NCBI GenBank assembly: GCA_964016885.1 | Contig: OZ024742.1 | Location: 178,250,001-178,314,000 of the forward strand | Length of the DNA stretch: 64,000 nucleotides | Reading direction: 5' to 3' | Origin: Eledone cirrhosa | Lineage: Eukaryota | In this document: positions 9,100-55,164 of the stretch, piece after piece | Layout of the letters: each line of letters opens with the position of its first letter | Position numbering within the stretch: the first letter of the stretch is position 1 | The notes under the pieces: generated by a model | The model's database searches: none | The model's input: only the letters and a program-made list of their open reading frames with translations | Told to the model about the DNA's origin: nothing | Made by a program: the position numbers and the translations under genes

Positions 9100-11409
9100 T
9101 TAGCTTGGGTTTGAATTTATCAATAAAATTCTTTCTTTGATTTTTCTCTTGATTTCACTTGGGTTGTGTAATTTGTAGAATGGGAATATTATAAATATTC
9201 CCTGACCACATGTTGCCAGGTGGCCGCTTAGGGGTATCTGACGGACATTTGGGTCTCTGATTTGTTGACGGTGTACCCGTGCACGTTCCGATAGTGCATT
9301 TCCAGTTTGACCGACATATAGTTCTTCACAATTCGGGCATTTAATGCAGTAAATTAGATTTCTGCTTTTGCAGTTCATATTTGCATTTGGGAATATTTTT
9401 CCAGTTTTTGTTTTCATATATTGACCGGCGTGTATGGATTGACATGTGCCGCATCGATTATCATTGCATTTAGATACAGTGAATGATTGGTCTTTGTTGT
9501 TAAGGTCAAACTTTGCTTTTGTTAGCAATTGCTTCAAATTTTTTGGCTGTCTTTTACTAAGAGTCAAAGATCGATCTGTGATTAAGCCTTTTAATTCATT
9601 ACTTTGAGCAATGATCGGTAGGTTTGCTTTGGCAGTGTTGAATATATTCTGGTGACATGGGTTGTGTGTCATTATAAATGGTATGACCAGTTCTTGGTTT
9701 CTTCTTCCTTGGGTTGTTCTAAGTTGTTGTATAGGTATTTTTATAGCCCGCTGTATGCCATTTTCTATAAGTAGAGATGAGTATTTTTGTTTGAGCAAAA
9801 ATTCTCTTAGTTCTGTTAGGCGTTTGTACCTGGTATTCGTATCTTCTACAATGGTACAAATTCTTCTGGCTAGGCAGTATGGGATGTTGCGTTTTGTATG
9901 AGGTGGATGGCACGACTTAAAATTCAGATATTGATGGGTGTCTGTGTGTTTATAATATATATCCGTGGTAATGGTGGTGTCGTTTTTGATTATCATTATA
10001 TCTAGGAATGGTAATTTGGTCCTACTCATCTCTTTTGTGAATTGGAGAGATGGGTGTAGGTTATTCAGGAGGATATTGAACTCATCCAGAGTATCTAGAG
10101 ATTCTGTCCAGATGATGAAACAGTCGTCAAGGTATCTCTTCCAAGATTTTTCAATGTACTTTCTAAAGTCAGTACTATATTTTTCCTCTATTTTTTGGTA
10201 GAGTTGTTGTTCTAAGTATCCCATTACAGAGTTCGCGTAAACGGGAGCAAACTTCGTTCCCATCGCTGTGCCTCTAATTTGGATGTAATGGATGTAATTC
10301 TTTCCATTGAAGAAGAAAGTGTTGTTTTCCAGAATAAGTTTAACTGCGTCTAATATAAATGGCGCTGTGAATCTAATGGGAATCACTTCTCTGTGTTTTT
10401 CCACCCAGTATTTAACCGCCTTTATTCCTAAATCATGTGTAATGTTGGTGTAAAGGCTTACCACATCAAAACTGAGTAGAAGTGAATTCGTTTCCGTGGT
10501 TTTGGGAAGATGGGACAGGAAGTCGATATCATCCCGGATGAAACTGGGTATGTGAATACATAGTGGTTTCAAAATAATGTCAACAAAATTGCTGAGACGG
10601 TGGGTGGGGCATGTTGGACCAGCTATAATAGGTCTAAGTTTTAAGTCTTTTGGGTGTAATAATTTAATGTACTCACTGTTTTGTTCTCTTACTGCCAGTT
10701 GTATTTCTTTTGACTTATGAACTTTCGGTAGGCCATACATGTTGCTGGGTCTCGGCTCAAAATTGGTGATGTAGTCTCTTTCCTTATCAGTAAATGAGTT
10801 GTGGTATTTTGAAGCCAGGTTGTTGATCTTCTTCATGATGTTGTGGTCTATATTTGACGGTATTTCATGATAGAATGTTGTGTCTTTCAGTTGTTCCTCA
10901 ATCAAATCCTTGTAGTATTCAGTATCCATTATAACAACTGCACCCCCTTTATCTGATTCTTTAATTATTATTGTTTTATCATTTTGTATACGTTTAAGTG
11001 CAGACATTTCTGATTTGTTAATGTTTGGCCTAACATTAGTATTATGTCTAAGAGGAAATTTAGACAGGATGTCAATGTATTGGTCGAGATAGATATTTCT
11101 TCCTTTTGGCGGAGTGAAATTTGATTTATTCTTTACTAGTGATTCATCACTCTCATTATTTTTATCCGCGAAGAATTCTACAAGACGTAATTTTCGACAG
11201 AATTCTTGGGTATCCTCCTTCAGTTCTTGGTGGTTGACTGTTGGAGTCGGTGTGAATTTCAGTCCTTTTGACAGAATTTGCATTTCATAATTGTCAAGAT
11301 CTCTTTTAGATAAATTAATTATTTTAGGATCTACGTGTACAGCTGTTTTGGGTATGTTTCCTCCTGGAGTCTTTCTTTTTCCGGTTTTTGTTGTCCTGAC
11401 GTTAAAAAA
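9100..11409 (-). CDS. PLE pol: reverse transcriptase + Cys-rich linker + GIY-YIG endonuclease (frame is open upstream of the first Met at 11283)
   Basis: IINLS..LSKGLKFTPTP, DKG, YGLPKVHK, LRPII, SFDVVSLYTNI, GTAMG, RYLDD, FLD, CNDNRCGTC, NLIYCIKCPNC..YVGQT..R..H; the last ~12 codons are frameshifted by a 1-nt deletion relative to the inverted copy (KEKNFIDKFKPKLNEQ*). Confidence 0.93.
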   Translation of the reverse strand, partial: FFNVRTTKTGKRKTPGGNIPKTAVHVDPKIINLSKRDLDNYEMQILSKGLKFTPTPTVNHQELKEDTQEFCRKLRLVEFFADKNNESDESLVKNKSNFTPPKGRNIYLDQYIDILSKFPLRHNTNVRPNINKSEMSALKRIQNDKTIIIKESDKGGAVVIMDTEYYKDLIEEQLKDTTFYHEIPSNIDHNIMKKINNLASKYHNSFTDKERDYITNFEPRPSNMYGLPKVHKSKEIQLAVREQNSEYIKLLHPKDLKLRPIIAGPTCPTHRLSNFVDIILKPLCIHIPSFIRDDIDFLSHLPKTTETNSLLLSFDVVSLYTNITHDLGIKAVKYWVEKHREVIPIRFTAPFILDAVKLILENNTFFFNGKNYIHYIQIRGTAMGTKFAPVYANSVMGYLEQQLYQKIEEKYSTDFRKYIEKSWKRYLDDCFIIWTESLDTLDEFNILLNNLHPSLQFTKEMSRTKLPFLDIMIIKNDTTITTDIYYKHTDTHQYLNFKSCHPPHTKRNIPYCLARRICTIVEDTNTRYKRLTELREFLLKQKYSSLLIENGIQRAIKIPIQQLRTTQGRRNQELVIPFIMTHNPCHQNIFNTAKANLPIIAQSNELKGLITDRSLTLSKRQPKNLKQLLTKAKFDLNNKDQSFTVSKCNDNRCGTCQSIHAGQYMKTKTGKIFPNANMNCKSRNLIYCIKCPNCEELYVGQTGNALSERARVHRQQIRDPNVRQIPLSGHLATCGQGIFIIFPFYKLHNPSEIKRKIKERILLINSNPS

Positions 11410-12680
11410 TGAATTTTTCTCTGTTCAGGATTTATATTCCTGTTGGTGTTCGCTTGATGAACTTTTGGTCGTGATATTATATTTGGTTTCGTTATGTATT
11501 TTGTCCTATTTTTGGTATTCTGTATATTATTTTTCTTCCTGTTAGCATTATTTTTAACAATCTGGGAAAATGACCTAGGTTTGCTTTCAGGTTTAGATCG
11601 TTTTTTCGTCCAGTTTCTTGTGGGCAATCTCTGTTGAGATCTTGAGAGTGATCTGGTTATTCTACGTTTTGTTTCCACATTCCTTGTTGGTAGTCTCTGT
11701 TGAGATCTTGAGAATGATCTCCTGGTTTTACTACTTCTCATGGTCTGGTCAAAGGAATACCTATCGTGTTTGTGCTTTTTGTTCATGTTGTGTGCGATAG
11801 GGTGTTTTTGTAGAAAAAGCGAAGAGTTATTACCGTAGTTCTTCTTTGATTCAAGGTAAGGTGAGTGTTTGTGTTGGCACGTGTTCTGGCGTATGTTGTG
11901 TTGATGAGATTGTCCACTTTTAATGCTTTTTATCAGGGTTCCAGAGTCTTTACCGTAATTTGCAGCATATTCATCGAGAAATAATTGTTTCTGCTGCCAT
12001 ACCTTTCTTGATTTGTTTTCTTCTTTTGAGATATCTCCGATCCATAGTTCTCGTAGTTTTTCAGCTATAATACCAGTCGTTAGCTTTGAAATTTCAACTT
12101 CAATTTGGTCATCAATAGCTTCATATTTGGCTTTGTAGCGGGATTGTTTACATTCAGAAATGGAGATGTCGGTCCTGAATGTTTTCAATGTAAGTGCCCA
12201 TCGGAGTTTTGTTTGTTCTTCTGGTTCTCCTGCAATTTCTGTAATTAGGTATTTACGAGGGAGTATGGGTGCCGTTAGAGAGAGCCATTTCGAATGTGTT
12301 TCGACATATTTTTCGCATCTGTATGCTTACCAGAAGTTTTGTTTTCTTATGTTATGGAATTTTTTCCATGTCTTCCACATTTCTTTTCTTATTCGATGTG
12401 TTTTGTTTTCCAAATTTCTTTCGTTTATTTCTGACATCCAAGGGGGTTGTGGTAGGCTTTCTCTTGTATCTTTGATAACTGTTGGTATAATTTCAGCTAA
12501 ATTCTTAATTTCAGAGTTTATATGTTCAGTTATAAGTTTTCCGTCTGTAGATTGTTTTTCTATTTCCTTTAAAATAGAGGATTGTGTGTCCATCATCGTG
12601 ATAAGTGTTGATAATTTCGATGATATCTCCTTTAGAATTCTTTCTGATTCTGTTGGTTTCATTTGTTGCTTTCCAGACAT
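11331..12680 (-). pseudogene. PLE upstream ORF (helical N-part, basic R/S/K-rich tail) with one in-frame TAA at 12327-12329
   Basis: 12680-12327 and 12188-11331 are the same frame with no other stop between them; a homologous remnant lies at 14636-15330. Confidence 0.75.
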
Positions 12681-21073: not shown

Positions 21074-21107
<34 letters not shown>

Positions 21108-21352
21108 TTTTCTTTATTAACCACAAGGGTTTACATAAAGTAGACATTAAGGACAGTACAGGACAATACAGGGCGGTACAAATGCGCATTTTTGCGTGTA
21201 AAAAAACAGAGGATGTAATAAAAAAATAACGATGAAAAATTCCCCAATAGAGGGGAGACTTCCGAGGGACATTTGTGGAGAAAGCCCATTAAAAGGCCAC
21301 AGTGACCCTGACCACCAGGGCAAGTGCCCTCTCCCAGTTTTCCACCTTTAAT

Positions 21353-24300
21353 TTACAGACACATACTCAGAGTAGGCCCATTCACTCGGGCCATACTTGC
21401 TTCTCTCACCCATCTTTCAACAAAATGCTGGGAAGAGAGCACTTCCCTCTCTACCCTGATTTTCTTTTTCAAATGAAATTTGAAAAAGTTAATCAGGGCA
21501 TCACCGAAGAGGTACGTGCTCGTCTTCAACCTCTTCAAACGTGTCCACCATACTATCTCTTTCGCCATGGCCACCAGACAGATAAAAACTGCCTGCCCTT
21601 CCCGGCTAAACGAAGAGTGCAGGGCAATCGTCACGATGGACTCAGCTGATAGCCGGATCCGTCCTACACGTGACAGCAGGTGTTCGACATAAACTCACAA
21701 GTCAGCAATGCTCGGACACTGGACGCGTGCGTGCAGGACGGTTTTGTCGCCCTGCGCGCATCTCGGACATGCCCGGCTGACGGCACCTCCATGCCTGTAG
21801 AGTTTATCCCGAACTGGCAAAGCTCCTCGGTAGCACTGCCAGGCCAGGGATTTCTGGAAGTTGTCCATAGGCCCCGGCCCGAAAGTCCTTCCAAAGAGAT
21901 TGGCTAGTTGATTTTCGTCGACGCCTAGAGTTTCTCCAAGTACGTCGTCGCTCTTCCCCTCCACTAATACTCTATAGAACGCCAAGGTGGAGTTTCCACC
22001 GATCACATTGCCCGATTGGTCGAGGGCTGTGAGCGCCTGAAGACATTCCAGTCTCCAAGCGCTCCCTCTCGGTCTTCGCTTGACCCAGGACTGCAGCTCC
22101 GTCAAGGAGACGAGCTGGGGAAAGACGTGTCTAGCAAACGGCGACCACACCTGATCACCGTCGAGGAAGAGGTGGAGATGTCGTAGCCTGAGCGCGTGTC
22201 TGCGCCTCATCAGCCACGGCATGCCCCGCCCTCCACGTAGCGGGTGTTGACAGCAGATGGACCGCCTGACCATCGGAGCGCGTCCCTTCCACAAAAAGCG
22301 AAAGAGCAAACGCTCCAGCGCAGTCAGGCGGGGCTTAGGACAAGGTACGACGGTCAGGCGGTAGTAGATGACGGACGTGATGTACGCGTTAGCCACCTCC
22401 GCTCGACCTTTCAGGGATAGCTTCCTCTCCGCCCATTTCTGGGTGAGGGAAGCCACCCTCTCGTCACCTCGTCCCAGCTTTTGTCCGTCTGGAGGTCCGG
22501 ACCGAACCAGACCCCTATAAATTTAACCGGACCGTCCGTCCAGCGCCCGACGATGCTGTTGGGCGGCATGGACCTGCCTCTCCAGATGGCGAGCTGCAGA
22601 CCCACTGACTTTTCCTGGTTGATCATTGCTCCTGTCACCGCTTCGTATTCTCTCAGTGTAGTGCCGATCGCCTCGATGTGTTTGGCGTTCGACACCACGA
22701 CGGTGACATCGTCCGCATGTGCTGACACGGATCTTCCGCATCCTAGTTCGCGCGGGACCCCCTCAACGTCTTCAGTTTGTGCAGTAATGACTCGAGAGTC
22801 AATACGTACAAGAGGGACGAGAGGGGACATCCTTGCCGGACCGAGCGCATGATGTTGAACGATTCCGAAAGGTGACCGTTCACTCTCACCACAGAGCAGA
22901 TGTCGCTGTGCATGGCAGCGATTCAGCCTGTGAGGTCGGGGCCAAAGCCAGACGCCTTCAGGACTGCCGCTAGGTAACGATGGTCGACCCTATCGAAAGC
23001 TTTCGACTGATCTAAATTGATCAAGGACCCACCCGCGCCAGGTTCCCTAGCTACCCTCTCTACGAAGTATCGCATGAGATGGAGGTTGTCGTGGATGGAT
23101 CTGTCGGCAATGGTGCATGTCTGCGCCTCTCCCCCCAGACCACCAACGACAAGCCCAACCTCTTTGCTAGCACCTTGGCCAAAATCTTGAACTCTGTGTT
23201 TAGCAGAGTTATGGGCCTGAAATTATCTATGTTATCACCCTTGTTCGGATCCTTTCTCAGCAGCGCCACCGCTCCTCGGCTCACAGAACTGGGAATTCTC
23301 CCGTTCTGTTGCCAGTTGCAGTAGACGTTCGCCAAGAGGCCTCCGAACAAGTCTGGCATCTGTACGTAAAGTTCATAGGGCAGACCATCCAAACCAGGCG
23401 ATTTACTCCTTGTTCAGCCAGTCATTGCCTCCCATACTTCAGCGGCCGTTATCGGATTTTCGCAACACTCCGCCTCAGTGGCCGAGAGCCGCGGTAGTCC
23501 GTCGAGGTAGACACTAAAGTCTATCCCTCGATCCCGCCGCCGCTGCCCCCGAACAGTTGAGCGAAGTGTCGCTGAAAAGCTTCACACATTTGCCAGGGAT
23601 CGAGTAGCATGCGCCCGTCGTGGTCCACCAAAGACCGGATCGTGGCTTTGTTGCCACGACGCGCATCCGCCATTGACCGGATTTCGTCCCCTCGTGTCTG
23701 AGAGCACGCACCCTAGCTCTGACAACGCAGCCTTCGTGCTTTGCATTGAAGAATTGATCAAGGGCCAATTTCGCCGCAAGTACGTCGGTCGTGATGCCTT
23801 TGCTAAGCGCCTCGTCTAATTTTCTAACTAGTTCACCCTCTGCTCTATTTTTCTCTATAGCTAAAGCATTACTAAACCTAATGGCCTCTATTCTAATCGC
23901 TCTTTTCAGAGCAAACCACCACTTGTTGTTGACGATGGCCCCCGTCAACGCTCGCTTAACTAGTTCGCTAATCCGGTCTCTGTAGGCCTTGCGCGCTGGT
24001 AAGGACGCGTTTAGCTTCCAGTAGTCAGGTCCTCGTCTATGAAGCCTATCTAAGTCAAGCACACAGATCACAAATTTGTGGTCCGTGTAGCTAACTATCT
24101 TGTGGACAGCCTATGCTAGACCTATCTATTTCCCTACAAAATACTCTAGATATGATCTGGATGACCCGATACGGTTTGTCCAAGTCCACATTGGCACATT
24201 CGGGAAATCCAATCGCTACCTGTCAGACAGTTCAAAACTCCTGAGCGGGTTGGTGAGGCTCTTTCACCCTCCTCCCCTATCCGCTAATCCCACACATTCC

Positions 24301-24754
24301 CAGCGTGCATCGAAGATCCCGTTCCAGTCGCCCACTAACACTAAAGTGCGGGACGTTCCTAGAAAGGTTTCCAGACGCCGGAAGAAATCAGGCCGCCCTG
24401 CTCCTGTCGGGGCATAGACAGCCACTAGCCTGAAAGCTTGCCCGTCTCCGCTGGTCACGTCCAGCACGACCAACTTACCTTCTGGGTCCAGGAAGATGGC
24501 CCGTATGGCGAGACCCAAATCTCTCCGAAAAATCACAGCAACTCCCCCCCCCCCCCAAATCCAGGACGGCTGGGAGATGCGTACACATCGTAGCCACCGA
24601 AGATCTGTGCGAAGGCCCGTGCTTCGGAGATTCTAGTCTCGCTGATGGCCACTACATCTATGTTTAGTGACCTGATGTCGTTGAGCAGGTGGCCCTGCTT
24701 CCATGACGACCCCAAGCCACGCGCATTTATGCTGCCTATTCTGAGTGAGGTCAT
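21353..24754 (-). pseudogene. E1 ORF2 (APE-RT-CCHC), frameshifted
   Basis: INARGL, SET, GDWN, DHK, GLDGLPYE, NFRPITLLN, HADD, CPRC..T..H...C. Confidence 0.92.
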
Positions 24755-24788
24755 GTTGAAATGGAGTGGAAAAGATGGGAAGACCACT

Positions 24789-26520
24789 TACCTTACTTCT
24801 CGTAGCGGAAGGATGGTTTCTCCATCCCTTTTCACTTGATCATCTGGTGAAGGGACCGTTGAATCGTCCCTTCGGCTGGTCGTCGGCTCTTCTGTGAGTA
24901 TATCCGAATATACTCTCCGGTTGAGTGTCCCTCCTAGGTCTCTGAAATCACCAACTGCGTTGGGGAATTTCGTTTTAATGTTTGTGTATTGTTTCTGTGC
25001 TATTCTTACCAGTCTTGTTCGTTGGTGTTTTGATTGGTGCTGGTATTATGCTGAAATGTATGTGTGTTCAATTATGTAAGTCATTAGTTTCTTGTGTGTA
25101 TTCATTGCTGTGCATTTGTTTTTCTGGGGTGGGTGTGGTTCTGCTATTTTCTTGTCGTTGTTGCTGGATGTGTGTGTTTTGTTGTTGTGTTTGCGATGTT
25201 GGTGCTTGTGGTGGTGGTGTTGAAGGTGTTGTTGTTGTTTGCGGTGGAGTTGCCGCCGGTGGTGATGGTGGTGCTAGTGTGAGTGGTGATGGTGTTGGTG
25301 GTGTTGCTGCTGTAAGTCTCTTTGCAGTAGCCTTTACCCTTTTTTCATTTCTTTCCTCCCTTTTCGAAGGCGACGATGCGCTGCTTCTGCGTTTGTGCCT
25401 TCTTACGACCTTTTGCCATCCCTCTCCCACCTCACACTCCATATCCGATTCTGTGAGGTCGGAGAGGGGTACCAGCTCCACTCTTTCCTTTGTTGTTGTT
25501 GGTGATGTTTGCAGTGGAGTCTCTGTTGCAGTTGCAGTTGATATTACTGTTGTTGTTGTTAATACTTCCACTGCTGCTGCTGTTCTTGATTTCTGTGGCG
25601 TGGGTATGGGTGCCACGGACCTATCTTTCCTGCTTGCCACCTGTCCTGTTGCTGATAGCAGTGGAGCCGGTTTCGGAAGGAGGGGGGTTTTCTCCTTTCT
25701 CAGTGTCTTCTCATTGCAGAAGTCCCTGAGGTGAGTCTTCGATCCACAGCGAAAATATTTCGGGCGTTTTCCCTCAACACTTATGGGCAGTTGAGTGCCG
25801 TTATAGAAGTCTATCACATCCGGGATAGCTTCGATGCACTCCTGGTTGGTTTGGATTAACATCTCAATGGAGGTGCCTACCCAATCTTCTCGTACTTTTT
25901 TCTGTACTTGCAGTACAGTTGTTTTGTCCTCGATTCCGATGAGGACAGACGCGGCCAGCCAAGAAGGGGCCATCCCGGGGGGGGGGGATGTGGGTCAGTT
26001 TGACCCTCACAATTTTTTGCCCGCAGTAGGAGGGCACCAACACCATTTCCTCGCTCCTTAGGGTCACTAAGGATTGAGCCTTTGCCTCCTGGGGTGTGGC
26101 AAAAAGCACGTCCACGGTGGCATATTTCTTGCCTCGGGTGATATGCGTTTTCCGCTGCCACACAGACCCTAAGGCTTTTTGTATGTGAGCCTCTGTGGCT
26201 CTTTCAACCCTACGTGATTTTGTGCTTACTGTACGGTACGTGACCGTACAGTGCTGTTGGGTTTCGAAAAAATTTTCGGCTGCCTTGCAGATTGCTCGGT
26301 GTCCGGTTTTCGTCACCATCTTCTTTGCTTCCTGTAATTCCTCATTTGTTATAAGGATGGTTTCCATGGAAAGAGGCGACACCACATTTAGAGAAGGGGG
26401 GTGAGAGACAATTTTCTCTCTGGTGTAGTGACGATTGAGGAATGAGTGCGAGTGACTTGTGAAAATTCTTTTTTGTAGCCATGTTTTTTTTTTTTTGTTT
26501 AAAATGAATATTGGGCACAA
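24789..26520 (-). pseudogene. E1 ORF1 (RRM-like, degenerate zinc knuckle, T/P-rich tail), frameshifted
   Basis: VDVLF..PSYCGQKIVRVKLTHIPP; YFRCGSKTHLRDFC; frameshift in a poly-G run near 25976-25988. Confidence 0.75.
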
Positions 26521-26724
26521 AACCCCAATAAGCGGTTATTTAACCCCGAAGGGCCAAATAACGGGCCGAAATACCCCTCTCGCGAGAAGGAGGGTGTTTT
26601 TATCTACAATTTGGTTAAAGTTTTAAACAATTTACAATTGTTATAGCGGTTAAAAATTACTATACCTTACAGAGCCGAGCCTCCGTCAACCATGGTATTC
26701 AATAATAATAATAATAATAATAAT

Positions 26725-35439: not shown

Positions 35440-35480
35440 GTTGGTGAAGAAAATTTGGAGAAAAAGGACGAAAGGTGCAC

Positions 35481-37371
35481 TTACCTTTTCGTTTCCTGGA
35501 GATCGGTTTGTTCAATCTCCATTTGGGTGCTGGATGGGATGTTGGGTGGGGGAGGGAAACATTTTAACAGGACGCGGTTGATGGGTTTGTGGCAGGGGTT
35601 GCCCACGTCCTGTGAAAATTTATTTTTTAGGTCATTATAGGTTTCCATAGAAACCCTTATAAGTTTAAGGTGTGGAGACGATTATGCCTTGACGAAAGTT
35701 TTGCCCTCCGTCTCCACCTTGGGGTTTTGGGAGATGACCTCCATCAAACTCTTGTTGTTTGTGTTGATGTATGCATATTGTTGTTTGTGTTTTTGTTGTG
35801 TTGTTTTAGTTTATTGTTCGTCCGGGAGTTTTCTTTTTATGGTGGGTGCTTGTGTTTGGGTGGTGTTGGTGCTGGTTTTGCTGATAGGGGGATGTTTGAC
35901 TGTGGTGTTGTTTGTGTCTGTGGTTGTGTGTTAGTGTTGGTGATTGAAGTTTTGGGGGTTTTGTGGTGTCTCTTTTTTTGTTTTTTAGATTTCCGCGGTT
36001 CTCCCTCTTCTTCACTTAAAGAAGGAGAAGCAGCTTCATCCGTCGAAGAATAATCATCGTCAGGTGTGTGGGGTAAGGGTATGGTGTGTGGTGGTGGTGT
36101 TTCGGTGTGTGTGTTTGTGGTAGTGTTTGATGGAGTGGGATGGAGTGTGGCTGTGTTATTCAGGGGTGTTGTCTCTGTTTTTTCTGTTGTTGTTGGTTGA
36201 GTGCCTGTTTGTTTTGGTGTGGTTGCTCGTTTCGTCTGTCGTTGTACTTGTGGTGGTGGTGGTTGTTTTGGTGTTGGTAATAATGTTTTTTAATGATGTT
36301 GTTGTTGTGTGTTTGTGGACAAGAGGCTTTTAGGTGTGCTGTGCTACCACAGCGAAAGCAATGAAATTTTCGTCCTTCTACCGAAATGTTTATTTTGTTG
36401 TTATTATCGATTACGAATCTTTCGGGTATTTTGGAGATTCTCTCCGGCTCCATTTGTAACAGAATCTCCAAATCTGTACCCGCCCACCTTTGTCGAATAG
36501 ATTTTCGTATCGAAAGAATCATATCAGTTTCTGGCTCTACGAAGCCAGCCAAGATCCACCAGATGTTAATGTTTGGAGGTATGTTTTTTATTTTTATTTT
36601 TTGTGTCCTTTTTCCCATGTATGTAGGGGAAAAGGTGTATGCTTTTGACACCATTGGTGTCACAGAGTGTTTTTGTGCGAGTGCCTCGCTTTTAAACAGT
36701 ACGGAAACACTTCCGTACTGTTTTCCTCGCTGGAGAAAATCGACATTTGCTAGAATTTCCTTGAAAGTATCTTCTATATCTGCTTTGTTAACAAATGTCG
36801 GCTTTCTTGTGGAATTTGACACAGTCCTAAAGGTGACTGATCTGCGAATTGTGTCTTCCTTTATTTCAAGGGGTGAGTTAATTCTAAACCCACCTCTTTC
36901 TTCGAAAGTTACAAATTTTTTCCCTTGCTGGAGCATATCTCTTGCGTTGGAGATATCAAGATTTATAAAATCTTGTTTTTTGTTCACTGTTTCAGCGAGG
37001 ACATTTTCTTTTTTTTGTGTGGTGTTGCTGTTGTTGTTGTTGTTATCGTTGTTAGCCTCGGTGTTAGAAATCTCAGTTCCTTGTCGAGGTGAAACATTAT
37101 GTGTAGATGTAGATGTAGAGTTGTTGATGTATTTTTCATGTGTATGTATGTTAATGGGTTTAATTCCTGTGTTTTCCTGTGTTATTGTTATTTTTCTCCA
37201 CTTCGACGGTAGAAATTTTAAAATCTTCAAGTGGTAATACTTTTTTTTTTCTTTGTTGACAGTCGTATCTATGGCGTCGTCCATAGTAGCAGAAGCAGAT
37301 ATAACGTTAATATCTGCCTCTTTCTCTCTCTTTTCTCTATTAACGTTCTCCAGCGTTCTTGTGTTGCTCAA
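35481..37371 (-). pseudogene. Copy B ORF1 (RRM-like + CCHC knuckle)
   Basis: 403-aa open stretch with CFRCGSTAHLKASC; C-terminal part disrupted. Confidence 0.75.
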
Positions 37372-37618
37372 GTGATTTAGTTTGTAAAATCTGATATTTT
37401 AAAACAAAGTTTTAAAATAAAATATTCGCCCCTACAGGGGCGAAAAATGAGATTACCACCCAGCTGACAATTCAGCTTGGGGGTTAATCTACAAAATGTT
37501 ATGTTTTTTCAAACAATTAGTTCGGTTTTTTGTATAGAAATTAACAAAAAAGCTTACCGGCGATGTTCCACGCGTCAGACAGGAAGAGAGATAGATAAAT
37601 AAATAGATAGATAGATAA

Positions 37619-37669
<51 letters not shown>

Positions 37670-40600
37670 TATTTCTTTTATTTGCCACTAGGGCATCAAA
37701 AGTGGGACAAGTACAAAGGGGGGAGTTTACACAAAAAGGCGTCCTCAATAAGGAGGAGGCAATAACAAAATATAAAAATAAAATAAGATATAACAAAAAA
37801 TAAAATTTTTAACAAAATCCTCAATAGAGAGGAGGCGCCTTGGGGGGTCGCACACACCCCCGAAAAAAGTGTGCAACCCTTCTCCTCAGGAGCACAGAGA
37901 AGGGGTGCTCCCTTGGTCTTTCATCTTCCTCACCTATAGTCTGATGTAGAGTGAAGGCCCATTCACACGGGCCATTCTCGCCACTTTCACCCATCTTTCA
38001 TAGAAACGGCTGGGGTGCAGCACCTCTCTCTCCATCCTGATCCTTCTTCCGAAATGATATCGGAAGAAACGGACCAGTTGTTGGCCAGAGAGAAAGGTGC
38101 CCGACCTCAGTCCTTTCAGACGCGTCCACCATACAACCTCTTTCGCCATGGCTATTACGCACAGAAACACCGCCTCTGCTTCATCTTTGAAGGGGGGAGG
38201 CGGCTTGATCATTACAATAGACTCGGTGGTCAACCGGATCGGTCCCACCCTTGACAGCAGTTGTTCGACATAGCCCCACAGATCGGCTACGCCCGAGCAG
38301 TGTACTAATGCGTGTGCAACGGTTTCCTCGTCGCACACGCATCTGGGACAGATCTTTTTGGCGGGGTCCCTACCCGGGCGCCCGTGTCTGTAGAGCCTTT
38401 CTCGAACGGGTAAAGCCCCTCGGTAGCACTGCCAGGCCAGGGACTTCTGGAAGTTGTCCATAGGTCCCGGGCTGAATGTCCTACCGAAAAGGCTGGCCAG
38501 TTCGTCCTCCTCCATGTCTAGGGCTTCTCCGAGGGCGTCGTCGCACCTGCTGCGTACCAGCCCTCTATAGAATGTTGCGGTGGAGTCTCCACTGATAACC
38601 GGATCCGCCTGCCAGAGGGCGGTGAGCGCCTGGGCACACTCAGTGTGCCAGGCGCCCAGTTTTCTCGGTCTTTGCTTGACCCAGGATTGCAGCTCGGTGA
38701 GTGAGACGAGTCTGGGAAAGGTTCGTCTCACAAACGAGGCCCACACCGGTTGTCCGGTGAGGAATACGTAGAGGTGCCGTAGCCTTAATGCGTGTTTACG
38801 CATCATTAGCCACGGCATCCCCAGCCCTCCTTTCGAAGGGTGTTGACAGCAGATGGATCTCCTCACCATAGGAGCCCGCCTCTTCCAAAGGAATTGGAAG
38901 AGCGCGCGCTCCATCTTGGTGAGGGTTTCCCTTGGGCAGGGCACTACGGTCAGGCGGTAGTAGATGACGGACGCTATGTAGGTGTTCGCCACCTCCGCCC
39001 GACCTTTCAGGGATAGTTTGCAACTGGCCCACTTCTGGGTCAGTGCAAACACTCTGTTCGTAACCTCCGCCCAGTTTTTCTCCACCTGGAGGTCCGGTCC
39101 GAACCAGACCCCGAGCAACTTCACCGGGCCCTCCGTCCAGCGTCCGACGACGCTATCGGAGGGCATCGGTCTGCCCCTCCACGTGCCGAGTTGCAAACCG
39201 ATCGACTTGTCCCGGTTCAGCTTAGCCCCTGTGAACTTTTCGTACTCCTCCAGTAAGGTGCCGACCGCCTCGATTTCGGAGGCCGTCGACACCATTACTG
39301 TCACGTCATCGGCGTAGGCCGACACCGCTTTCCGCAATCCCGGTTCCAAAGGGATGCCCTGCAACAACTCCAACTTCCGCAGTAGTGGCTCGAGAGTCAA
39401 TACATACAGAAGGGAGGAGAGAGGGCACCCTTGTCGGATGGACCGCGCGATTTTGAACGGCTCCGAGAGGTAGCCGTTCACCTTGACCCTAGAGCAGATG
39501 CGGCTGCTGTGCATAGCAGTGATCCAGCCCCTGAAAACGGGTCCGAAGCCTGCCGCCGCTAGCACCGCATCCAGGTAACCATGGTCGACCCTATCGAACG
39601 CCTTAGATTGATCCAAGTTGATCAGAGCCCCACCAAAGCCGGGTTCGTTCCCAACCCTCTCTATGATGTATCGCATGAGGTGGAGGTTGTCATGGATGGA
39701 CCTGGACGGGATAGCGCATGTCTGCGCATCTCCCACCAGGTTGCCCACGACAAGCGCCAACCTCTTTGCTAGCACCTTGGCCAAAATCTGTAACTCTGTA
39801 TTTAGCAGTGTTATGGGCCTGAAGTTACTTATTTCGTCCCCCTTGTTCTCGTCCTTCCTCACTAGCGTGACTACGCCCTTGGTCACAGTACAGGGAATTC
39901 TCCCGTTCTGTTGCCAGTTGCAGTAGACCGCCTCGAGGAGATCGGGGAACAAGTCCGGCATAGCTAGATATAATTCGTAAGGAAGACCATCGAGACCCGG
40001 GGATTTGCGTTTGCCGCATTGGCTCAGCACGTCCTCTATCTCAGCGGCCGAAATCGGCTCCTCGCAGGACTTCGCCTCCCTGTCCGAGAGGCGCGGCAGG
40101 CCGTCGAGGTATGGACCGAAGTCCACGTTCCCAACCGGCTCCCCGCCCCTCCCGAACAGTCGGGCAAAGTGCCTTTGAAAGGCCTCACACATCTGCTTAG
40201 GCTCAAGAATCGCCCGTCCATCCAGGTCTCGCAAAGACCGGATGGTGGATTTAGTTCCACTGTTGGCCTCTGTCACGCGGGCCCAGCTAACAGCTTTGGT
40301 CCCCTCGTTCCCTAGAGCACGTATTTTACTTCGGACAACGCAGCCTTCGTGCTTCGCGTCGAAAAACTGGCTCAAAGCCGTTCTCGACGCTAGCACTCTG
40401 GCCACGTCGCCGCTTCTAATTGCCTCTTCTACTCTATCTATTAGCTCCCTTTCCTTCCTATTCCTATCCGCAGCTAGACCCTTACTAAATTCTATCGAGA
40501 CTACTCTAATCTCTCTCTTTAGAGATACCCACCACCTGCTGTTGACGATCGCTCCAGTCAACCGTTCCTTAACTAACGTACTAATCCGATTCCTGTAGGC

Positions 40601-41395
40601 TCTACTTGCCGGCAAGGACAAGTTGAGCTTCCAGTAACCGGGGCCCTGTCTATGAGTTCTGTCAAGGTTGACCATGCAGGTCACTAATTTGTGGTCTGAA
40701 TAGCCAACAATGCGCATTTTTGGACAACTTAAAAAGTCCTTATCCTTAATTCTAACTAAGAACCTATCTAGGTACGACCTAGATGATCCGCTACGATTTG
40801 CCCAAGTCCAGGTTGGCGCAGTCGGAAAATCTAGTCGATATCTATCGGCCAGGTCAAATCGACCGATTAACCCTTTGAGGCTATTACACCCCTCTCTATC
40901 GGGGCAGGCCCCTACGTAGTCCCAGCGTGCATCTAGGATACCATTCCAGTCCCCCACTAATAGCAAGGAGCGGGACGTCCCTAGAAAAGTCTCCAGACGA
41001 TGGAAGAAGTCCGGCCGCATTGACCCGAAAGGGCCGTAGGCGGCTACCAACCTAAACGCTCCGCCTTTACCACTGCCAAGGTCCAGAACCACTAGTCGAC
41101 CCTCCGGGTCCAAATGTACCATCTGTGTTGCGAGACCCAGATGTTTTTGCAGCAGAACGACAACTCCACCCCCACCTCCAGGCTGACAGAGAGATGCGTG
41201 CATCTCAAAGTCATCAAAGGTGGGGGCCAGCTGTCGCACGTTGCTGATCCGGGCCTCGCAAATAACCATCACATCTATACGTTGTGACCTGAGGTCATTT
41301 AGAAGCATTGCTTGCTTCCAAGTTGAGCCCAGGCCACGCGCATTTAAACAGCCTACTCTTAGCATAGCCATGTTGGTGGTGAAGAGAAAAGGCAC
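37670..41395 (-). mobile_element. Tx1 copy C, ORF2-only, in (GATA)n
   Basis: 5' end lies 24 nt upstream of the ORF2 ATG. Confidence 0.93.
37934..41371 (-). CDS. Intact Tx1-type ORF2 polyprotein (1145 aa from the ATG at 41371): APE endonuclease, RT, CCHC finger
   Basis: LNARGL, CE, GDWN, SYLDR, SDH; KSPGLDG, FRPITLLN, DQSKAFD, RQGCPLS, YADD, LLG; CPRC..ETVAHALVHC; no stops. Confidence 0.95.
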   Translation of the reverse strand: MAMLRVGCLNARGLGSTWKQAMLLNDLRSQRIDVMVICEARISNVRQLAPTFDDFEMHASLCQPGGGGGVVVLLQKHLGLATQMVHLDPEGRLVVLDLGSGKGGAFRLVAAYGPFGSMRPDFFHRLETFLGTSRSLLLVGDWNGILDARWDYVGACPDREGCNSLKGLIGRFDLADRYRLDFPTAPTWTWANRSGSSRSYLDRFLVRIKDKDFLSCPKMRIVGYSDHKLVTCMVNLDRTHRQGPGYWKLNLSLPASRAYRNRISTLVKERLTGAIVNSRWWVSLKREIRVVSIEFSKGLAADRNRKERELIDRVEEAIRSGDVARVLASRTALSQFFDAKHEGCVVRSKIRALGNEGTKAVSWARVTEANSGTKSTIRSLRDLDGRAILEPKQMCEAFQRHFARLFGRGGEPVGNVDFGPYLDGLPRLSDREAKSCEEPISAAEIEDVLSQCGKRKSPGLDGLPYELYLAMPDLFPDLLEAVYCNWQQNGRIPCTVTKGVVTLVRKDENKGDEISNFRPITLLNTELQILAKVLAKRLALVVGNLVGDAQTCAIPSRSIHDNLHLMRYIIERVGNEPGFGGALINLDQSKAFDRVDHGYLDAVLAAAGFGPVFRGWITAMHSSRICSRVKVNGYLSEPFKIARSIRQGCPLSSLLYVLTLEPLLRKLELLQGIPLEPGLRKAVSAYADDVTVMVSTASEIEAVGTLLEEYEKFTGAKLNRDKSIGLQLGTWRGRPMPSDSVVGRWTEGPVKLLGVWFGPDLQVEKNWAEVTNRVFALTQKWASCKLSLKGRAEVANTYIASVIYYRLTVVPCPRETLTKMERALFQFLWKRRAPMVRRSICCQHPSKGGLGMPWLMMRKHALRLRHLYVFLTGQPVWASFVRRTFPRLVSLTELQSWVKQRPRKLGAWHTECAQALTALWQADPVISGDSTATFYRGLVRSRCDDALGEALDMEEDELASLFGRTFSPGPMDNFQKSLAWQCYRGALPVRERLYRHGRPGRDPAKKICPRCVCDEETVAHALVHCSGVADLWGYVEQLLSRVGPIRLTTESIVMIKPPPPFKDEAEAVFLCVIAMAKEVVWWTRLKGLRSGTFLSGQQLVRFFRYHFGRRIRMEREVLHPSRFYERWVKVARMARVNGPSLYIRL

Positions 41396-44410: not shown

Positions 44411-44437
44411 CATTGACTCAACAACAAAAATGATAAT

Positions 44438-44815
44438 AATTGTTTCTACTTTTTGGCACAAGGCAAGCAATTACCCAGTACATTACTGGTACTTTATTTT
44501 ATCGACCCCGTAAGTATGAAAATTAAAGTTAACCTCGGCGGGATTTGAACTCAGAATGTTTGAACAAAAATGATAATATTAATGATAATAATAATAATTT
44601 GAACAAAAATTATAATAATAATGATTTCTACTGTTGGCACAAGGCCAGTAATTTGGGGATAGGGGAAAGTCGATTAAATTGACACCAGTTGTTACTGGTA
44701 CTTATTTTATCGACCCCGTAAGAAGGAATGACAAAGCTAACTTAGGCAGCATTCGGGATAAGCTTTGTGTTTTAGTACCAGTAAGGAACTGAGGTCGATT
44801 TTAATCGACTTTCTC
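44438..44815 (-). mobile_element. Cluster of truncated tRNA-SINEs with AAT-like tails
   Basis: 44438-44560, 44620-44750 and a further fragment. Confidence 0.8.
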
Positions 44816-45396: not shown

Positions 45397-45470
<74 letters not shown>

Positions 45471-45655
45471 TGTTTCTACTTTAGGCACAAGGCCAGCAAT
45501 TACACAGTGCATTACTGGTACTTTATTTTATCGACCCCGTAAGAATGAAAGGCAAAGTCAACCTCGGCGGGATTTGAACTCAGATCGTAAAGGGACGTAA
45601 CTATGCTGGAAAGCATGGCGTCCGACCCTCTACCGATACTGCCAATCCACCGCCC
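45471..45655 (-). mobile_element. tRNA-SINE (short subfamily) with long (AAT)n tail 45397-45470
   Basis: Full head to tail. Confidence 0.9.
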
Positions 45656-45940
45656 TCCTATTAAGCCTTTGATGTAGATATATAATTATTAATAATAATA
45701 ATAATAATAATGCTTTCTTTATTAACCACAAGGGTCTACATGAAGTAGAGATTAAGGACAGTACAGGACAATACAGGGCGGTACAAATGGGCATTTCTGC
45801 GTGTAAAAAACAAGAAACAGAGGATGTAATAATAGAACAATGAAAAAATTCCCCAATAGGGGGGAGACTTCTGAGGGAAATTCGTGGAGAAAGCCCATTA
45901 AAAAGCCACAGTGGCCCTCTCCCAGTTTTCCACCTTTAAT

Positions 45941-48900
45941 TTACAGACACATACTCAGAGTAGGCCCATTCACTCGGGCCATTCTTGCCTCTCTCACCCA
46001 TCTTTCAACAAAATGCTGGGAAGAGAGCACTTCCCTTTCTACCCTGAATTTCCTTTTTAAATGAAATTTGAAAAAGTTAATCAGGGCATCACCGAAGAGG
46101 TAAGTGCTCGTCTTCAGCCCTTTCAAACGTGTCCACCATACTATCTCTTTCGCCATGACCACCAGACAGATAAAAACTGCCTGCCCTTCCCGACTAAAGG
46201 AAGAGGGCGGGGCAATCCTCACGATGGACTCAGCTGATAGCTGGATCCGTCCTACACGCGACAACAGGTGTTCGACATAAACCCACAAGTCAGCAATGCT
46301 CGGACACTGGATGAGTGCGTGCACGACGGTTTCGTCGCCCTGCGCGCATCTCGGACATGCCCGGCTGACGGCACCTCCATGCCTGTAGAGTTTATCCCGA
46401 ACTGGCAAAGCTCCTCGGTAGCACTGCCAGGCCAGGGATTTCTGGAAGTTGTCCATAGGCCCCGACCCGAAAGTTCTTCCAAAGAGATTGGCTAGTTGAT
46501 TTTCGTCGACGCCTAGAGTTTCCCCAAGTACGTCGTCGCTCTTCCCCTCCACTAATCCTCTATAGAACGCCAAGGTGGAGTTTCCACCGATCACATTGCC
46601 CGATTGGTCGAGGGCTGTGAGCGCCTGAAGACATTCCAGTCTCCAAGCGCTCCCTCTCGGTCTTCGCTTGACCCAGGACTGCAGCTCCGTCAAGGAGACG
46701 AGCTGGGGAAAGACGCGTCTAGCAAACGGAGACCACACCTGATCACCGTCGAGGAATAGGTGGAGATGTCGTAGCCTGAGCACGTGTCTGCGCATCATCA
46801 GCCACCGCATTCCCAGCCCTCCACGTAGCGGGTGTTAACAGCAGATGGACCGCCTGACCATCGGAGCACGTCCCTTCCACAAAAAGCGAAAGAGCAAACG
46901 CTCCAGCGCAGTCAGGCAGGGCTTAGGACAAAGTACGACGGTCAGGCGGTAGTAGATGACGGACGCGATATACGCGTTAGCCACCTCCGCTCGACCTTTC
47001 AGGGATAGCTTCCTCTCCGCCCATTTCTGGGTGAGAGAGGCCACACAGCTCGTCACCTCGTCCCAGTTTTTGTCCGTCTGGAGATCCGGACCGAACCAGA
47101 CACTGAGCAATTTAACTGGTCCGTCCGTCCAGCGCCCGGCGACGCTGTTGGATGGCATGGACCTGCCTCTACAGGTGCCGAGCTGCAGGCCTACTGACTT
47201 TCCTGGTTGATCATTGCTCCTGTCACCGCTTCGTATTCTCTTAGTGTAGTGCCGATCGCCTCGATGTGTTTGGCGTTTGACACCACTACGGTGACATCGT
47301 CCGCATATGCTGACACGGATCTTCCGCATCCTAGTTCGCGCGGGACCCCCCTCAACGTCTCCAGTTTGTGCAGTAATGGCTCGAGAGTCAATACGTACAA
47401 GAAGGACGAGAGAGGACATCCTTGGCGGACCGAGCGCATGATGTTGAACGGTTCCGAAAGGTGACCGTTCACTCTCACCACAGAGCAGATGTCGCTGTGC
47501 ATGGCAGCGATCCAGCCTATGAAGACGGGCCCAAAGCCAGCCGCCCTCAGGACTGCCGCTAGGTAACGATGGTCGACCCTATCGAAAGCTTTTGACTGAT
47601 CTAAATTGATCAAGGACCCACCCGTGCCAGGTTCCCTAGCTACCCTCTCTACGATGTATCGCATGAGGTGGAGGTGGTCATGGATGGATCTGTCGGGAAT
47701 GGCGCATGTCTGCGCCTCTCCCACCAGACCACCAACGACAAGCGCCAACCTCTTTGCTAGCACCTTGGCCAAAATCTTGAACTCTGTGTTTAGCAGAGTT
47801 ATGAGCCTAAAATTATCTATGTTATCCCCCTTGTTCGGATCCTTTCTCAACAGCGCCACAGCTCCTCAGCTCACAAAGCTGGAAATTCTCCCGTTCTGTG
47901 CCAGTTGCAGTAGACGTTCGCCAAGAGGCCTCCGAACAAGTCTGGCATCTGTACGTAAAGTTCATAGGGCAGACCATCCAAACCAGGCGATTTACCCCTT
48001 GTGCAGCTAGTCATTGCCTCCCGTACTTCAGCGGCTATTATCGGCTTTTCGCAACACTCCGCCTCAGTGGCCGAGAGCCGCGGCAGTCCTTCGAGGTAGA
48101 CACTAAAGTCCATCCCTCGATCCGGCCCGCCGCTGCCCCCGAACAACTGAGCGAAGTGTCGCTGAAAAGCTTCACACATTTGCTCGGGATCGAGTAGCAT
48201 GCGCCCGTCGTGGTCCACCAAAGACCGGATCGTGGCTTTGTTTCCACAACGCTCCTCCGCCACTCGGGCCCATTGAACGGCTTTCGACCCCTCGTGTCTG
48301 AGAGCACGCACCCTAGCTCTGACAACGCAGCCTTCGTGCTTTGCATTGAAGAATTGGTCAAGGGCCAATTTCGCCGCAAGTACGTCGGTCGCGATGCCTT
48401 TGCTAAGCGCCTCGTCTAATTTTCTAACTAATTCTCCCTCTGCTCTATTTTTCTCTATAGCTAAAGCATTACTAAACCTAATGGACTCTATTCTAATTGC
48501 TCTTTTCAGAGCAAACCACCACTTGTTGTTGACGATGGCCCCCGTCAACGCCCGCTTAACTAGTTCGCTAATCCGGTCTCTGTAGGCCTTGCGCGCTGGT
48601 AAGGATGCGTTTAGCTTCCAGTAGCCGGGTCCTCGTCTATGAGGCCTATCTAAGTCAAGCACACAGATCACAAATTTGTGGTCCGTGTAGCTGACTATCT
48701 TGAATTGTGGACAGCCTATGCTAGACCTATCTATTTCTCTACAAAATACTCTATCTAGATATGATCTGGATGTCCCTATGCGATTTGTCCAAGTCCACAT
48801 TGGCACATTCGGGAAATCCAATCGCTACCTGTCAGACAGTTCAAAACGCCTGAGCAGGTTGGTGAGTCTCTTGCACCGTCCTCCTCTATCCGCTAATCCC

Positions 48901-49350
48901 ACACAGTTCCAGCGTGTATCTAAGATTCCGTTCCAGTCGCCCACTAACACTAAAGTGCGGGACGTTCCAAGAAAAGGTCTCCAGACGCCGGAAGAAATCA
49001 GGCCACCCTGCTCCTGTCGGGGCATAGACGGCCACTAGCCTGAAAGCTTGCCCGTCTCCGCTGGTCACGTCTAGCACCACCCACTTACCTTCTGGGAAGA
49101 TGGCCCGTATGGAGAGATCCAAACCTCTCCGAAAAAGCACAGCAACTCCTCCCCCCGATCCCGGACATCTGGGAGATGCGTACACATCGTAGCCGCCAAA
49201 GATCGGTGCGAAGACCCGTGCTTCGGAGATTCTGGTCTCGCTGATGGCCACTACATCTATGTTTGACCTGAGGTCATTGAGCAGGTGGCCCTGCTTCCAT
49301 GACGACCCCAAGCCACGCGCATTTATGCTGCCTATTCTGAGTGAGGTCAT
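45941..49350 (-). pseudogene. E2 ORF2 (APE-RT-CCHC), frameshifted
   Basis: Very similar to E1 ORF2; YADD present. Confidence 0.92.
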
Positions 49351-49384
49351 GTTGAAATGGAGTGGAAAAGATGGGAAAGACCAC

Positions 49385-51290
49385 TTACCTTACTTCTCGT
49401 AGAGGAAGGATGGTTTGTCCATCCTTTTCACTGCTTGTGGCCTCCTCCGGAAGGATGTCCTTATAAATCCTCCTGGAGAGTGTTTGTCGGAAGTCTCCGA
49501 TGTCTTTGGGGAATTTTTGTTTTAGTGTCGTGTACGTTTCCTGTGTGATGCGAGTGATTTGTATGTGTGGAGGTGGTGTGAACTTTTGGGTTGTGTCGTC
49601 TTTTTCTCTGATGCTGGTGTTGTGTTGCATGTAGTGTAATAATTGGTTGTTCAAATGTAATGCTGTGTAGTGTTATCGTTTGGGTTGTTTTGTTTTGTTT
49701 GCGTTTGTTGTGGGTTTGTTTCTGTTACGCTTTTTGGTGACTTTTGTGGTGTTGGTGATGGTGGTGTTGGGGTTAATGATGGTGATGGGGTTGGTGTTTG
49801 TGGTGATGGGGTTGGTGATGCTGATGTGGATGGTGGCATATCTTTCCTAATTTTTTTGTTTGTTAATTTATTTGTTTCCCTCTGTATTTTGTTTTTGGAG
49901 GGGGAAGGAAGAGAATTTTTTCTTTTTGGTTTCTTTTTTTTCTTTTTTCCTGATACCGTTTCCCATTCCTCGTCGTCACAATCTGTCTCCAGTTGCGATA
50001 GGCCGGGGAGTGGAAATTCCTCCACAGGCGTTGGTTTTGGTTGTGGCGTGGTGGATGGTGTAGGCGCTGGTGATAGTTCTGGCGCGTTGGTTGGTGGTGG
50101 TGTTGGTTTTGCTACTGTTGCCGGGGTTGTTGCTGTTACAGTTGCTTCTGTTGTTGCTGCTACATTTGTTGCTGCCATTTCTGCTGCTGGTGGTGTTGAT
50201 GGTTGAGTCACTGGGGTGGGTAAGAGAGGTGGCCTCAACCTTTTAGCTTGAAGGCAGAAAGCCCTTAGGTGGGTTCCTTCACCACAAACGACACACCTAA
50301 GCCTTCTGCCCTCGACGATTACGGTGAGGTGGCTGCCGTCAGTGAGGTCTATTACCTTTGGGATCTCCTCAATGCTTTTATGGTCCGCATGGATCAGGAG
50401 CTCCATCCCAGATCTGGACCAGTTCTCCTGCTTTTCTTTCGCTATTTCAATTATCTTGGTGTTGGCCTCGATGCCGGCGAGGACGGCAGCCATTAGCCAG
50501 GGAATTTCGATGGCCGGAGGAACGTGGGTCACCCTGATCTTCACAAGACTCTGGCCACAATAGCTTGGTACGAGTGTAAAGTCATCACTTCTTAATGGGG
50601 CCATGGAGTGTTCTCTGGCCTCCTGTGGTGTTTCAAAGAACACGTCCACGGTTCCATACTTCTGCCCACGTCTGATGTGGGGTTTTTTTGCCCACACATG
50701 TCCCAAAGCTTTTTCGGCGCGATTTTATGTTAATTGTCCGATAAGACACGGTGCATAGGCGACGTTGCTCCATTTTATTAGGTGGGGTGAGGCTGACCCT
50801 GTACCCATCTTTCTTTACCAGTCCTTTGGCTTCTTCTAATTCCTCCTGAGTTACCTGGATCGCTTCGCACGTTTTTGCTACTCTGGCAAAACTCAGGGTA
50901 GTTTTCTTAATTTCATTGTTGCTGTTGTTGTTATCGTTATTTTTTGCTATTGTTAATTTTAGTTTCAGTTGTGGTGGTGGTGGCGTCAGTGGTGTTCGGT
51001 GTGGAAGAGTTCATTTTGGTTGAATTCATTTCGATATCACGAGTTAATTTATTTTTTTCTTTTGTTTCTGTTGTCGCTGTGGTGGTGGTGGGGGTGGGGG
51101 TTGTCGCGTGGTGGTGGTGGCGGCTTTAACACCTGCAGTCATTGGTAATGGCGGGAAATGAACGTCTGCCTGAGACAAATTTAAAATATTGCTACTGCTT
51201 ACATTTCCAGTGTTGGCAAACGTAGTAACATTTACAATTGTGGTGTCGGTGTTAGATTGTGAGGTAAGAGTGACTCTGAGACATCCATGA
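49385..51290 (-). pseudogene. E2 ORF1 (RRM-like, CVVCGEGTHLRAFC knuckle, T/P-rich)
   Basis: ORF fragments 49385-49654 and 49651-50706; start uncertain. Confidence 0.72.
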
Positions 51291-51793
51291 TTTTTCAAAG
51301 AAAAATTTTTGTTTGATAATTATAAAAAGTTTTAATTTTGGACTCAAGGCCCCAATATTTTTTAGTGTCCTTTTCAGAAATCAATGTATGTGCACTTATA
51401 TACAGTTAACAATAAAAATTTTCCATAAATGGCAATTTTAAACAACTGAAAATAACAAACCTTTGCGGAGCTCACGATGATACGATTTACTACGTAGGTC
51501 GCCAATAATAATAATAATAATAATGGTTTCTTTATTGGCCACAAGGGCTGACATGAAGAAAAATATTAGAGACGGCACAGAACAGTACAGGACGATACAA
51601 AGTGGGTTTTGGTCGTGTAAATAGGTTATAACAAGATATAAATCGGGATAGAAATCAAAAAAATTCAAACAACAAAAATTCCCCCAAAAGGGGGAAACCT
51701 CCGAGGTTCACTCGTGGTGAAAACCACACAAAAGACCTCGGCCACCCTGACCACCAGGGCAAGCGCCCGCTCTCACTTTTCCCACTCCTCAGT

Positions 51794-55132: not shown

Positions 55133-55164
55133 GTTGGATGAGAAACGGGGCAAGTGAGAAAGGG

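Follow-up and report, generated by a model that had tools for sequence, protein, structure and literature searches.

The window, the whole 64,000-nt stretch of DNA analysed here, belongs to a 3.0-Gb eukaryotic assembly and contains five related LINE copies (E1–E5), all on the minus strand. The main features, in window coordinates, are as follows.

21107–26700, minus strand: E1, a decayed full-length copy of the chimeric family C, an L1/Tx1-like LINE, with (ATT)n flanks on both sides
24835–26700, minus strand: P-derived 5′ UTR and ORF1 of E1 (ATG at 26482), ending at the P donor exon boundary GATCAAG
24834–24835, minus strand: the junction between the donor end of P and the E2 sequence that follows CAG, with AG microhomology of 2 nt
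24792–24834, minus strand: E2-derived ORF1 tail of 43 nt, repeating the homologous P tail, with an extra G in the run at 24826–24828
24786–24794, minus strand: E2-type donor motif AAG|GTAAGT with the ORF1 stop TAA (24790–24788) inside it
21352–24754, minus strand: E2-type ORF2 of E1 (APE endonuclease, RT, zf-RVT), interrupted by stops and frameshifts
35479–35487, minus strand: E4 donor motif AAG|GTAAGT at the ORF1 end; the E4 ORF2 is only ~70% identical
37606–41378, minus strand: E5, with an open ORF2 of 1,134 aa; 5′ truncation four bases past its family's donor position
45712–51503, minus strand: E2, from the family that supplied ORF2; its 3′ boundary is approximate
49431–49433, minus strand: CAG in E2 that putatively served as cryptic acceptor, in a tandem AAG-CAG with a weak pyrimidine tract
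51525–57307, minus strand: E3, from a cousin family of P, immediately upstream of E2 and not the parent of E1
55167–55175, minus strand: E3 donor motif AAG|GTAAGT, with the ORF1 stop TGA at +6 to +8

Compared with its family, E1 lacks ~400 nt of the 5′ part of ORF1. The intact ORF2 of E5 matched Pfam Exo_endo_phos, RVT_1 and zf-RVT, the last under its cutoff, and its best PDB match was human L1 ORF2p (E 3e-47), with R2 behind at 1e-19. ORF1 carries a CX2CX4HX4C pattern and gave no significant Pfam family; its Atlas look-alikes (0.88–0.93), a lead only, include CCHC and ZCCHC3 RNA-binding clusters. In a flank sample whose loci were partly picked because they lay in arrays, (ATT)n precedes the 5′ end in 40 of 41 C/P and 27 of 29 E2 cases, and the 5′ end directly abuts the 3′ end of another element in 17/41 and 12/29, respectively. 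These (ATT)n counts bear out the proposal of an earlier, sequence-only reading that the arrays are imposed by the target, and they lie above the share of flanks (>20%) that PMC4494074 sets as the Tx1-clade criterion of target preference. Classified by domains and target preference, the clade combines L1-group anatomy with Tx1-like targeting. It is comparable, by targeting alone, to Kibi and Koshi, the Tx1 families of fish described in PMC4494074, which also belong to the L1 group and target one simple repeat each, (TC)n and (TTC)n in their case and (ATT)n and (ATCT)n here; PMC13282606, as far as it bears on the group, gives L1-Tx1 counts only. For E4 and E5 the surrounding repeat is (ATCT)n, not (ATT)n.

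Other repeats share the window. A Penelope-like element (9100–12326, minus strand) has RT and GIY-YIG matches that both fall slightly below the Pfam cutoffs. A SINE-like repeat of ~200 bp with (ATT)n at its end occurs at 44420–44555, 45450–45654, 57309–57508 and 62514–62705, and its (ATT)n tails stand before several C copies, where they appear to seed arrays.

The three junctions of the sequence-only reading were reread directly on the minus strand and lie where it had placed them, at 55173/55172 in E3, 49431/49430 in E2 and 24835/24834 in E1. The E1 join has GT-AG precision: the P exon ends AAG|GT and the E2 side follows CAG|. In translation, the ORF1 tail of P ends TTSRRDDSTVPSPDDQGK*, that of E2 ends ATSSEKDGQTILPLREVR*, and that of E1 ends TTSRRDDSTVPSPDDQ-VKRDGETILPLREVR*, so that the staggered double tail claimed for E1 is present. 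The argument that homologous recombination would be ill-suited to produce this join also holds, the breakpoint being non-collinear and the ORF1 tail duplicated in C. Relative to E2, E1 has one G more, eight bases past the join; this G is a trait of family C, with 4 copies lacking it versus 2,244 junction-pattern matches. It restores the terminal ORF1 frame of E2 and brings the stop back into the second donor motif, which is followed in E1 by a pyrimidine tract and then CAAC-ATG.

A genome search with the ORF1 tail of E1 returned the E1 join in 28 of the best 30 loci. The other two of these 30 read on as GTAAGTGA into a different ORF2, and the same continuation followed in 60/60 fetched loci of the family that we call P. 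Because P continues AAG|GTAAGTGA into another ORF2, the breakpoint is fixed to the base. ORF1 identity to E1 was about 90–93% over ~1.5 kb for P and 65–69% for E3. The sequence-only reading had called the ORF1 of E1 E3-like while cautioning that it was only moderately similar to this E3 copy; the caution was apt, and the description stands insofar as the donor is a relative of E3, with P and not E3 as the parent. E3 does lie directly upstream of E2 in head-to-tail order, with nothing but (ATT)n between them; this local pair was nevertheless not the source, the ORF1 parent being a family found elsewhere in the genome.

On the ORF2 side, identity between C and E2 is 99–100% across the first 1,300 nt (compared column-wise, 22 copies each). 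Separate trees of 30 copies are incongruent in the manner expected of an ORF1 swap with E1 derived: in the ORF1-tail tree C groups with P (support 100/100), and in the ORF2 tree C groups with E2 and F7 (100/99) while the ORF2 of P groups with E3. Since E3 has the donor-intact end of P, and the tail of E2 is homologous to that of P through the join, C is the derived form. Family C is thus a hybrid of P and E2, joined exactly at the P donor motif and after the E2 CAG. Exact-pattern counts over the genome put the C join at 2,244 copies or more, donor-intact P at 65 and the E2 form at 2,055, all of them lower bounds because any mutation within the pattern conceals a copy; the reversed junction pattern, used as a genome-wide control, gave 0 matches. 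The E1 junction therefore marks an amplified family, which outnumbers its ORF1 parent about 35 times.

The C copies examined share 25 ORF1 alleles that are rare in P, together with the extra G, and family C therefore has a single origin; independent, repeated formation of the same join was not encountered. In a younger C subgroup, ORF1 is open for ~705 aa across the join. At loci of this young subgroup (L152:5835-7955; L193, L194, L217), residues of the tail past the join are altered while the frame and stop position are retained. C copies also form homotypic head-to-tail arrays with a ~6.05-kb period, five of them consecutive at G000:C1:55423000-55453400. Contigs from four sequencing runs at a P–E2 locus contained the join in X4 and X5, a result that speaks to presence only.

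The motif at which P was cut closes ORF1 across the clade. AG|GTAAGT stands at this position in P, E3, E2/C, E4, the E5 family, F6 and F9, with the variants CAG|GTAATT in F7 and AAG|GTAGCT in the single F8 copy. A donor-like motif containing the ORF1 stop is thereby retained in all nine lineages read directly, in two reading frames, the stop lying at +2 to +4 relative to the donor in some lineages and at +6 to +8 in others. ORF2 divergence among the lineages that keep it reaches 36%, and several of their ORF1 tails can hardly be aligned. Because the lineages are so diverged, the tails barely align and the stop falls at differing positions, it is the nucleotides and not the residues that are under constraint. 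The motif lies 30–55 nt before the ORF2 ATG and is followed by a pyrimidine tract; MAG|GTRAG occurs just once or twice in the entire P element. The remainder of the motif was present in two further families, in copies chosen for an altered first base. Among distant relatives, the motif was found in 0 of 17 clusters that have an ORF2 start, drawn from 80 metagenome loci. A second AG|GTAAGT at ORF2 +309 is judged incidental, since E4, E5 and F6 do not keep it.

In contrast to the donor, the putative acceptor is poor. The CAG has 8–9 pyrimidines per 20 and ranks 91st–120th by pyrimidine count among 179–189 YAG sites, in agreement with the earlier caveat that it lacks a clear polypyrimidine tract. 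The donor of E2 itself (49389/49388) follows 42–43 nt further downstream. The parental order that splicing in cis requires, P followed by E2, exists in the genome: at 9 of 65 P loci an E2 5′ end lies on the same strand within ~400 nt downstream, and at 13 within a 10-kb stretch. In the three P–E2 pairs measured, the distance from the P donor to the E2 CAG was 5.8–6.2 kb.

No source locus for family C was identified among the P–E2 pairs examined, because L128, the sole pair with the extra G in its E2 half, has just 1/22 of the C-diagnostic ORF1 alleles in its P half; C copies share its array. A second candidate (L117) has 12/22 C alleles in its P half, but the downstream E2 is without the extra G. 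Among E2 copies the extra G was found in 1/63 of the first set (L128) and in 4 copies genome-wide versus 2,055; at least one other such copy bears the neighbouring allele of the other subfamily, and the extra G is therefore recurrent. Six P copies (L117, L129, L132, L162, L167, L168) carry 9–17 C alleles in a mosaic, and may represent the donor sub-lineage or back-recombinants. Many C copies in turn hold runs of P alleles, and the mosaics in both families suggest frequent exchange between copies.

We then considered other joins in the clade. Donor searches, each pattern of which covers only part of the possible joins, recovered no spliced join for P (0 and 21 matches), E3 (5), the E4 group (44), F6 (6), the E5 family (5) or F7 (1). 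At the E2/C donor, the deviant copies (4 + 46) included none that were spliced and showed point changes or small local losses; at the acceptor site, 37 deviant copies held no foreign exon and were E2 variants or, in one case, an internal deletion. E2–E2 and C–E2 pairs are far commoner than P–E2 pairs, and a splice to the same CAG in them would be in frame. Both remaining ORF1 swaps crossed over in collinear fashion within ORF2. In F7, ORF1 and the inter-ORF region are the family's own, and identity to E2 rises to 98–100% beginning near ORF2 +130; in P, identity to E3 reaches 97–100% beginning near ORF2 +800. The F7 loci concerned are L155:6150-6560 and L326–L355, with the crossover to E2 near ORF2 +100–130. 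E4b, considered as a further chimera, proved to be a separate family (~80%). The sequence-only reading had envisaged read-through and splicing as a general means of shuffling ORF1 modules, with breakpoints concentrated at the donor. Neither expectation was borne out: the other swaps break within ORF2, and no second donor-bounded product appeared in any family searched. Splicing is not supported as the clade's general route of ORF1 shuffling, and that part of the proposal falls; as an account of family C, with its base-exact donor join, it remains the best available.

The background of junctions was surveyed in the fetched copies, where 266 candidates yielded 188 well-resolved junctions after 78 were dropped; some of the 188 are small indels or reference switches. 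Their microhomology has its mode at 2 nt (47/188), and several connect neighbouring elements. GT-AG boundaries fit 5/188, of which one is the C join, two are 5-nt slips located at the E2 donor and the last two have poor donors, and only the C join connects a consensus donor with a distant AG. The same join also bears the commonest deletion signature, because 2 nt is the modal microhomology among these junctions. At two loci, L411 and L412, E4-type copies break at the donor, and both cases fit background deletion. At L411:3054, an E4-group ORF1 ends exactly at the donor exon end and is followed by a satellite of ~20-bp units; at L412, a 120-nt loss lies one base away from an AG.

These observations make cis-splicing across a P–E2 tandem pair the best origin for family C, with a probability that we put at about 0.5. 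A transcript would have started in a P copy and continued by read-through as far as an E2 copy that had inserted into the (ATT)n tail of P; it would have been spliced from the donor at the end of the P ORF1 to a cryptic acceptor in the E2 ORF1 tail, and the spliced RNA would have been retrotransposed by the E2 ORF2 protein, all in one event. The donor of E2 itself, 42 nt further downstream, may have aided the weak acceptor through exon definition. The extra G was presumably selected because it returns the ORF1 stop into the donor motif. That the spliceosome took part at all, in cis or in trans, is the somewhat safer statement, and we regard it as probable. Under a random join weighted by the observed microhomology spectrum, with viable windows that are an assumption of the analysis, the chance of striking the donor is 0.7–4.0%, the donor plus AG 0.4–2.3%, and the donor plus YAG 0.04–0.12%; the base-exact coincidence at the donor would then correspond to a likelihood ratio of roughly 25–250 for spliceosome involvement. 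Against this, the prior for splicing is lowered because no other spliced copy was found and deletions are abundant, and the join is a single event, selected for its splice-like look, with a poor acceptor in a setting where 2-nt microhomology deletions are common. The probabilities assigned to the five origins, in figures or in words, are matters of judgement and not of computation.

The most serious competitor, possible though clearly behind cis-splicing in our estimate, is a microhomology join made without the spliceosome, either by a ~6-kb DNA deletion over a P–E2 pair or by an RT template switch at AG, with the donor struck by chance and the product surviving thanks to the viability of joins close to the end of ORF1. 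The frequent deletions in these copies, modal at 2 nt and in several cases bridging adjacent elements, are what such a process would leave; it also needs no good acceptor and no further spliced copies, and strand switching is the mechanism mainly credited for recombinant L1 families in PMC3600994. The chance of hitting the donor, or the donor together with a YAG, is nonetheless as small as given above, and the family-founding crossovers here that look homology-guided are collinear, not staggered. A crossover guided by homology had better sites available, with 10 identical bases at the donors of the parents and ORF2s that are 80–94% identical. Alternatively, the spliceosome may have set the P side only, through trans-splicing of P and E2 RNAs or through an RT jump onto a donor-cleaved P exon. 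Such a route, which we hold to be unlikely, accounts for a perfect donor beside a weak acceptor and for the absent source locus, and trans-splicing is among the proposals made for L1 chimeras (10.1101/2025.02.02.635956); yet a CAG still precedes the join, and the cis precursor exists at P loci. Splicing in cis is, moreover, generally far more efficient than splicing in trans.

The remaining two origins are improbable to differing degrees. A switch at the 5-mer AGTGA, which P (+3) and E2 (−2) do share, could have been followed by loss of GTAAG between AAG repeats, and 2 copies have undergone an identical 5-nt loss at the E2 donor. That donor, however, contains a perfect tandem repeat of 5 nt, which is missing from P; the loss was found in 0/60 P copies, the intermediate had 0 matches genome-wide, and two rare events plus the extra G would be needed, which makes this sequence of steps very improbable. 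We give still less credence, indeed hardly any, to the insertion of a 5′-truncated E2 into P at the ORF1 end. Nested insertion is a route proposed in PMC4120745 for ORF1 shuffling in the Jockey group and would yield a staggered hybrid; but E2 follows (ATT)n in 27/29 cases and the P donor is no such site, the remainder of P from GTAAGT onward stood after the E2 tail in 0/40 C copies (3′ flanks partly covered), and the exact coincidence with the donor would again be due to chance.

Cis-splicing of a P–E2 transcript has several partial precedents. In SVA_F1, a MAST2 exon spliced into SVA founded a subfamily of at least 84 copies (PMC3287187). As in family C, a splice placed a foreign 5′ piece on a retroelement and the product was amplified; SVA, however, is described there as a non-autonomous SINE-like element that received a host exon without a coding swap, whereas in C the ORF1 of one LINE family replaces that of another in an autonomous element with at least 2,244 copies. 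The 5′ chimeras of L1 at splice donors, such as RAP1GDS1/L1PA2, often have a weak or absent acceptor in the LINE (10.1101/2025.02.02.635956), and they share with C the donor junction, the weak acceptor, a new promoter and the proposal of cis or trans splicing. They differ, on that account, in involving host exons and in remaining at one or two copies each without a new family; in C, both donor and acceptor are LINE sequence, juxtaposed by target-made arrays. The SpIREs of human L1 are likewise retrotransposed spliced LINE RNAs with a GT-AG-bounded loss, within a single element, and are described as dead ends in PMC5860796; C spans two elements, has outgrown its ORF1 parent and, at its copy number, is no dead end. 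The recombinant mouse L1 families Tf and Gf, which acquired a new 5′ end and ORF1 by exchange (PMC3600994), and ORF1 shuffling in the Jockey group (PMC4120745) resemble the F7/E2 and P/E3 swaps. Unlike C, they have breakpoints in ORF2 as reported in these sources, which invoke strand switching, heteroduplex or nested insertion, and 'splic' is absent from the main texts of both. In the open-licence text searched, we found no splice that moved ORF1 between LINE families and no conserved donor over an ORF1 stop.

The origin of new LINE promoters and ORF1s is an old question, and breakpoints are mostly too old or too homologous to show the mechanism. Here one genome keeps both parents, the precursor arrangement and the base-exact join, and the splice route is therefore directly testable. 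If cis-splicing is the origin, a single splice carried a promoter and ORF1 onto the ORF2 of a neighbour, and the product now exceeds its ORF1 parent by ~35:1; spliced LINE RNA would then not always be a dead end and could found a dominant family. The broader proposition, that a new autonomous LINE family owes its existence to the host spliceosome and that a donor over the ORF1 stop, combined with microsatellite stacking, makes ORF1 a portable exon, we consider about evenly balanced.

What maintains the donor motif is a separate matter. The motif is a predicted U1 snRNP site, and it likely serves to produce an ORF1-only RNA or to guard the full-length RNA against early termination. Our working model is the switch outlined in PMC5580714 for the Ty1/copia element EVD, where a conserved U1-type donor ends the structural gene and provides both a structural-protein-only RNA and a block to early termination; EVD is an LTR element with a demonstrated intron, whereas the motif here is a putative donor in a LINE. 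If the model is correct, the conserved donor would represent a hitherto undescribed way for a LINE to balance ORF1 against ORF2 output, and its position over the ORF1 stop bears on how the protein ratio of a two-ORF LINE is determined. Two other uses of the site were rejected. Truncation of copies at the donor, suggested by the 5′ end of E5, did not occur in any of 3 matches. An intron of 50–60 nt from the donor to an AG just within ORF2 would be in frame for E2 and not for P, and its removal was seen in 0/46 deviant E2/C copies. The F7 inter-ORF region resembles a 48-nt GT...AG mini-intron before CCAAC-ATG, and it is retained in nearly all of 30 copies.
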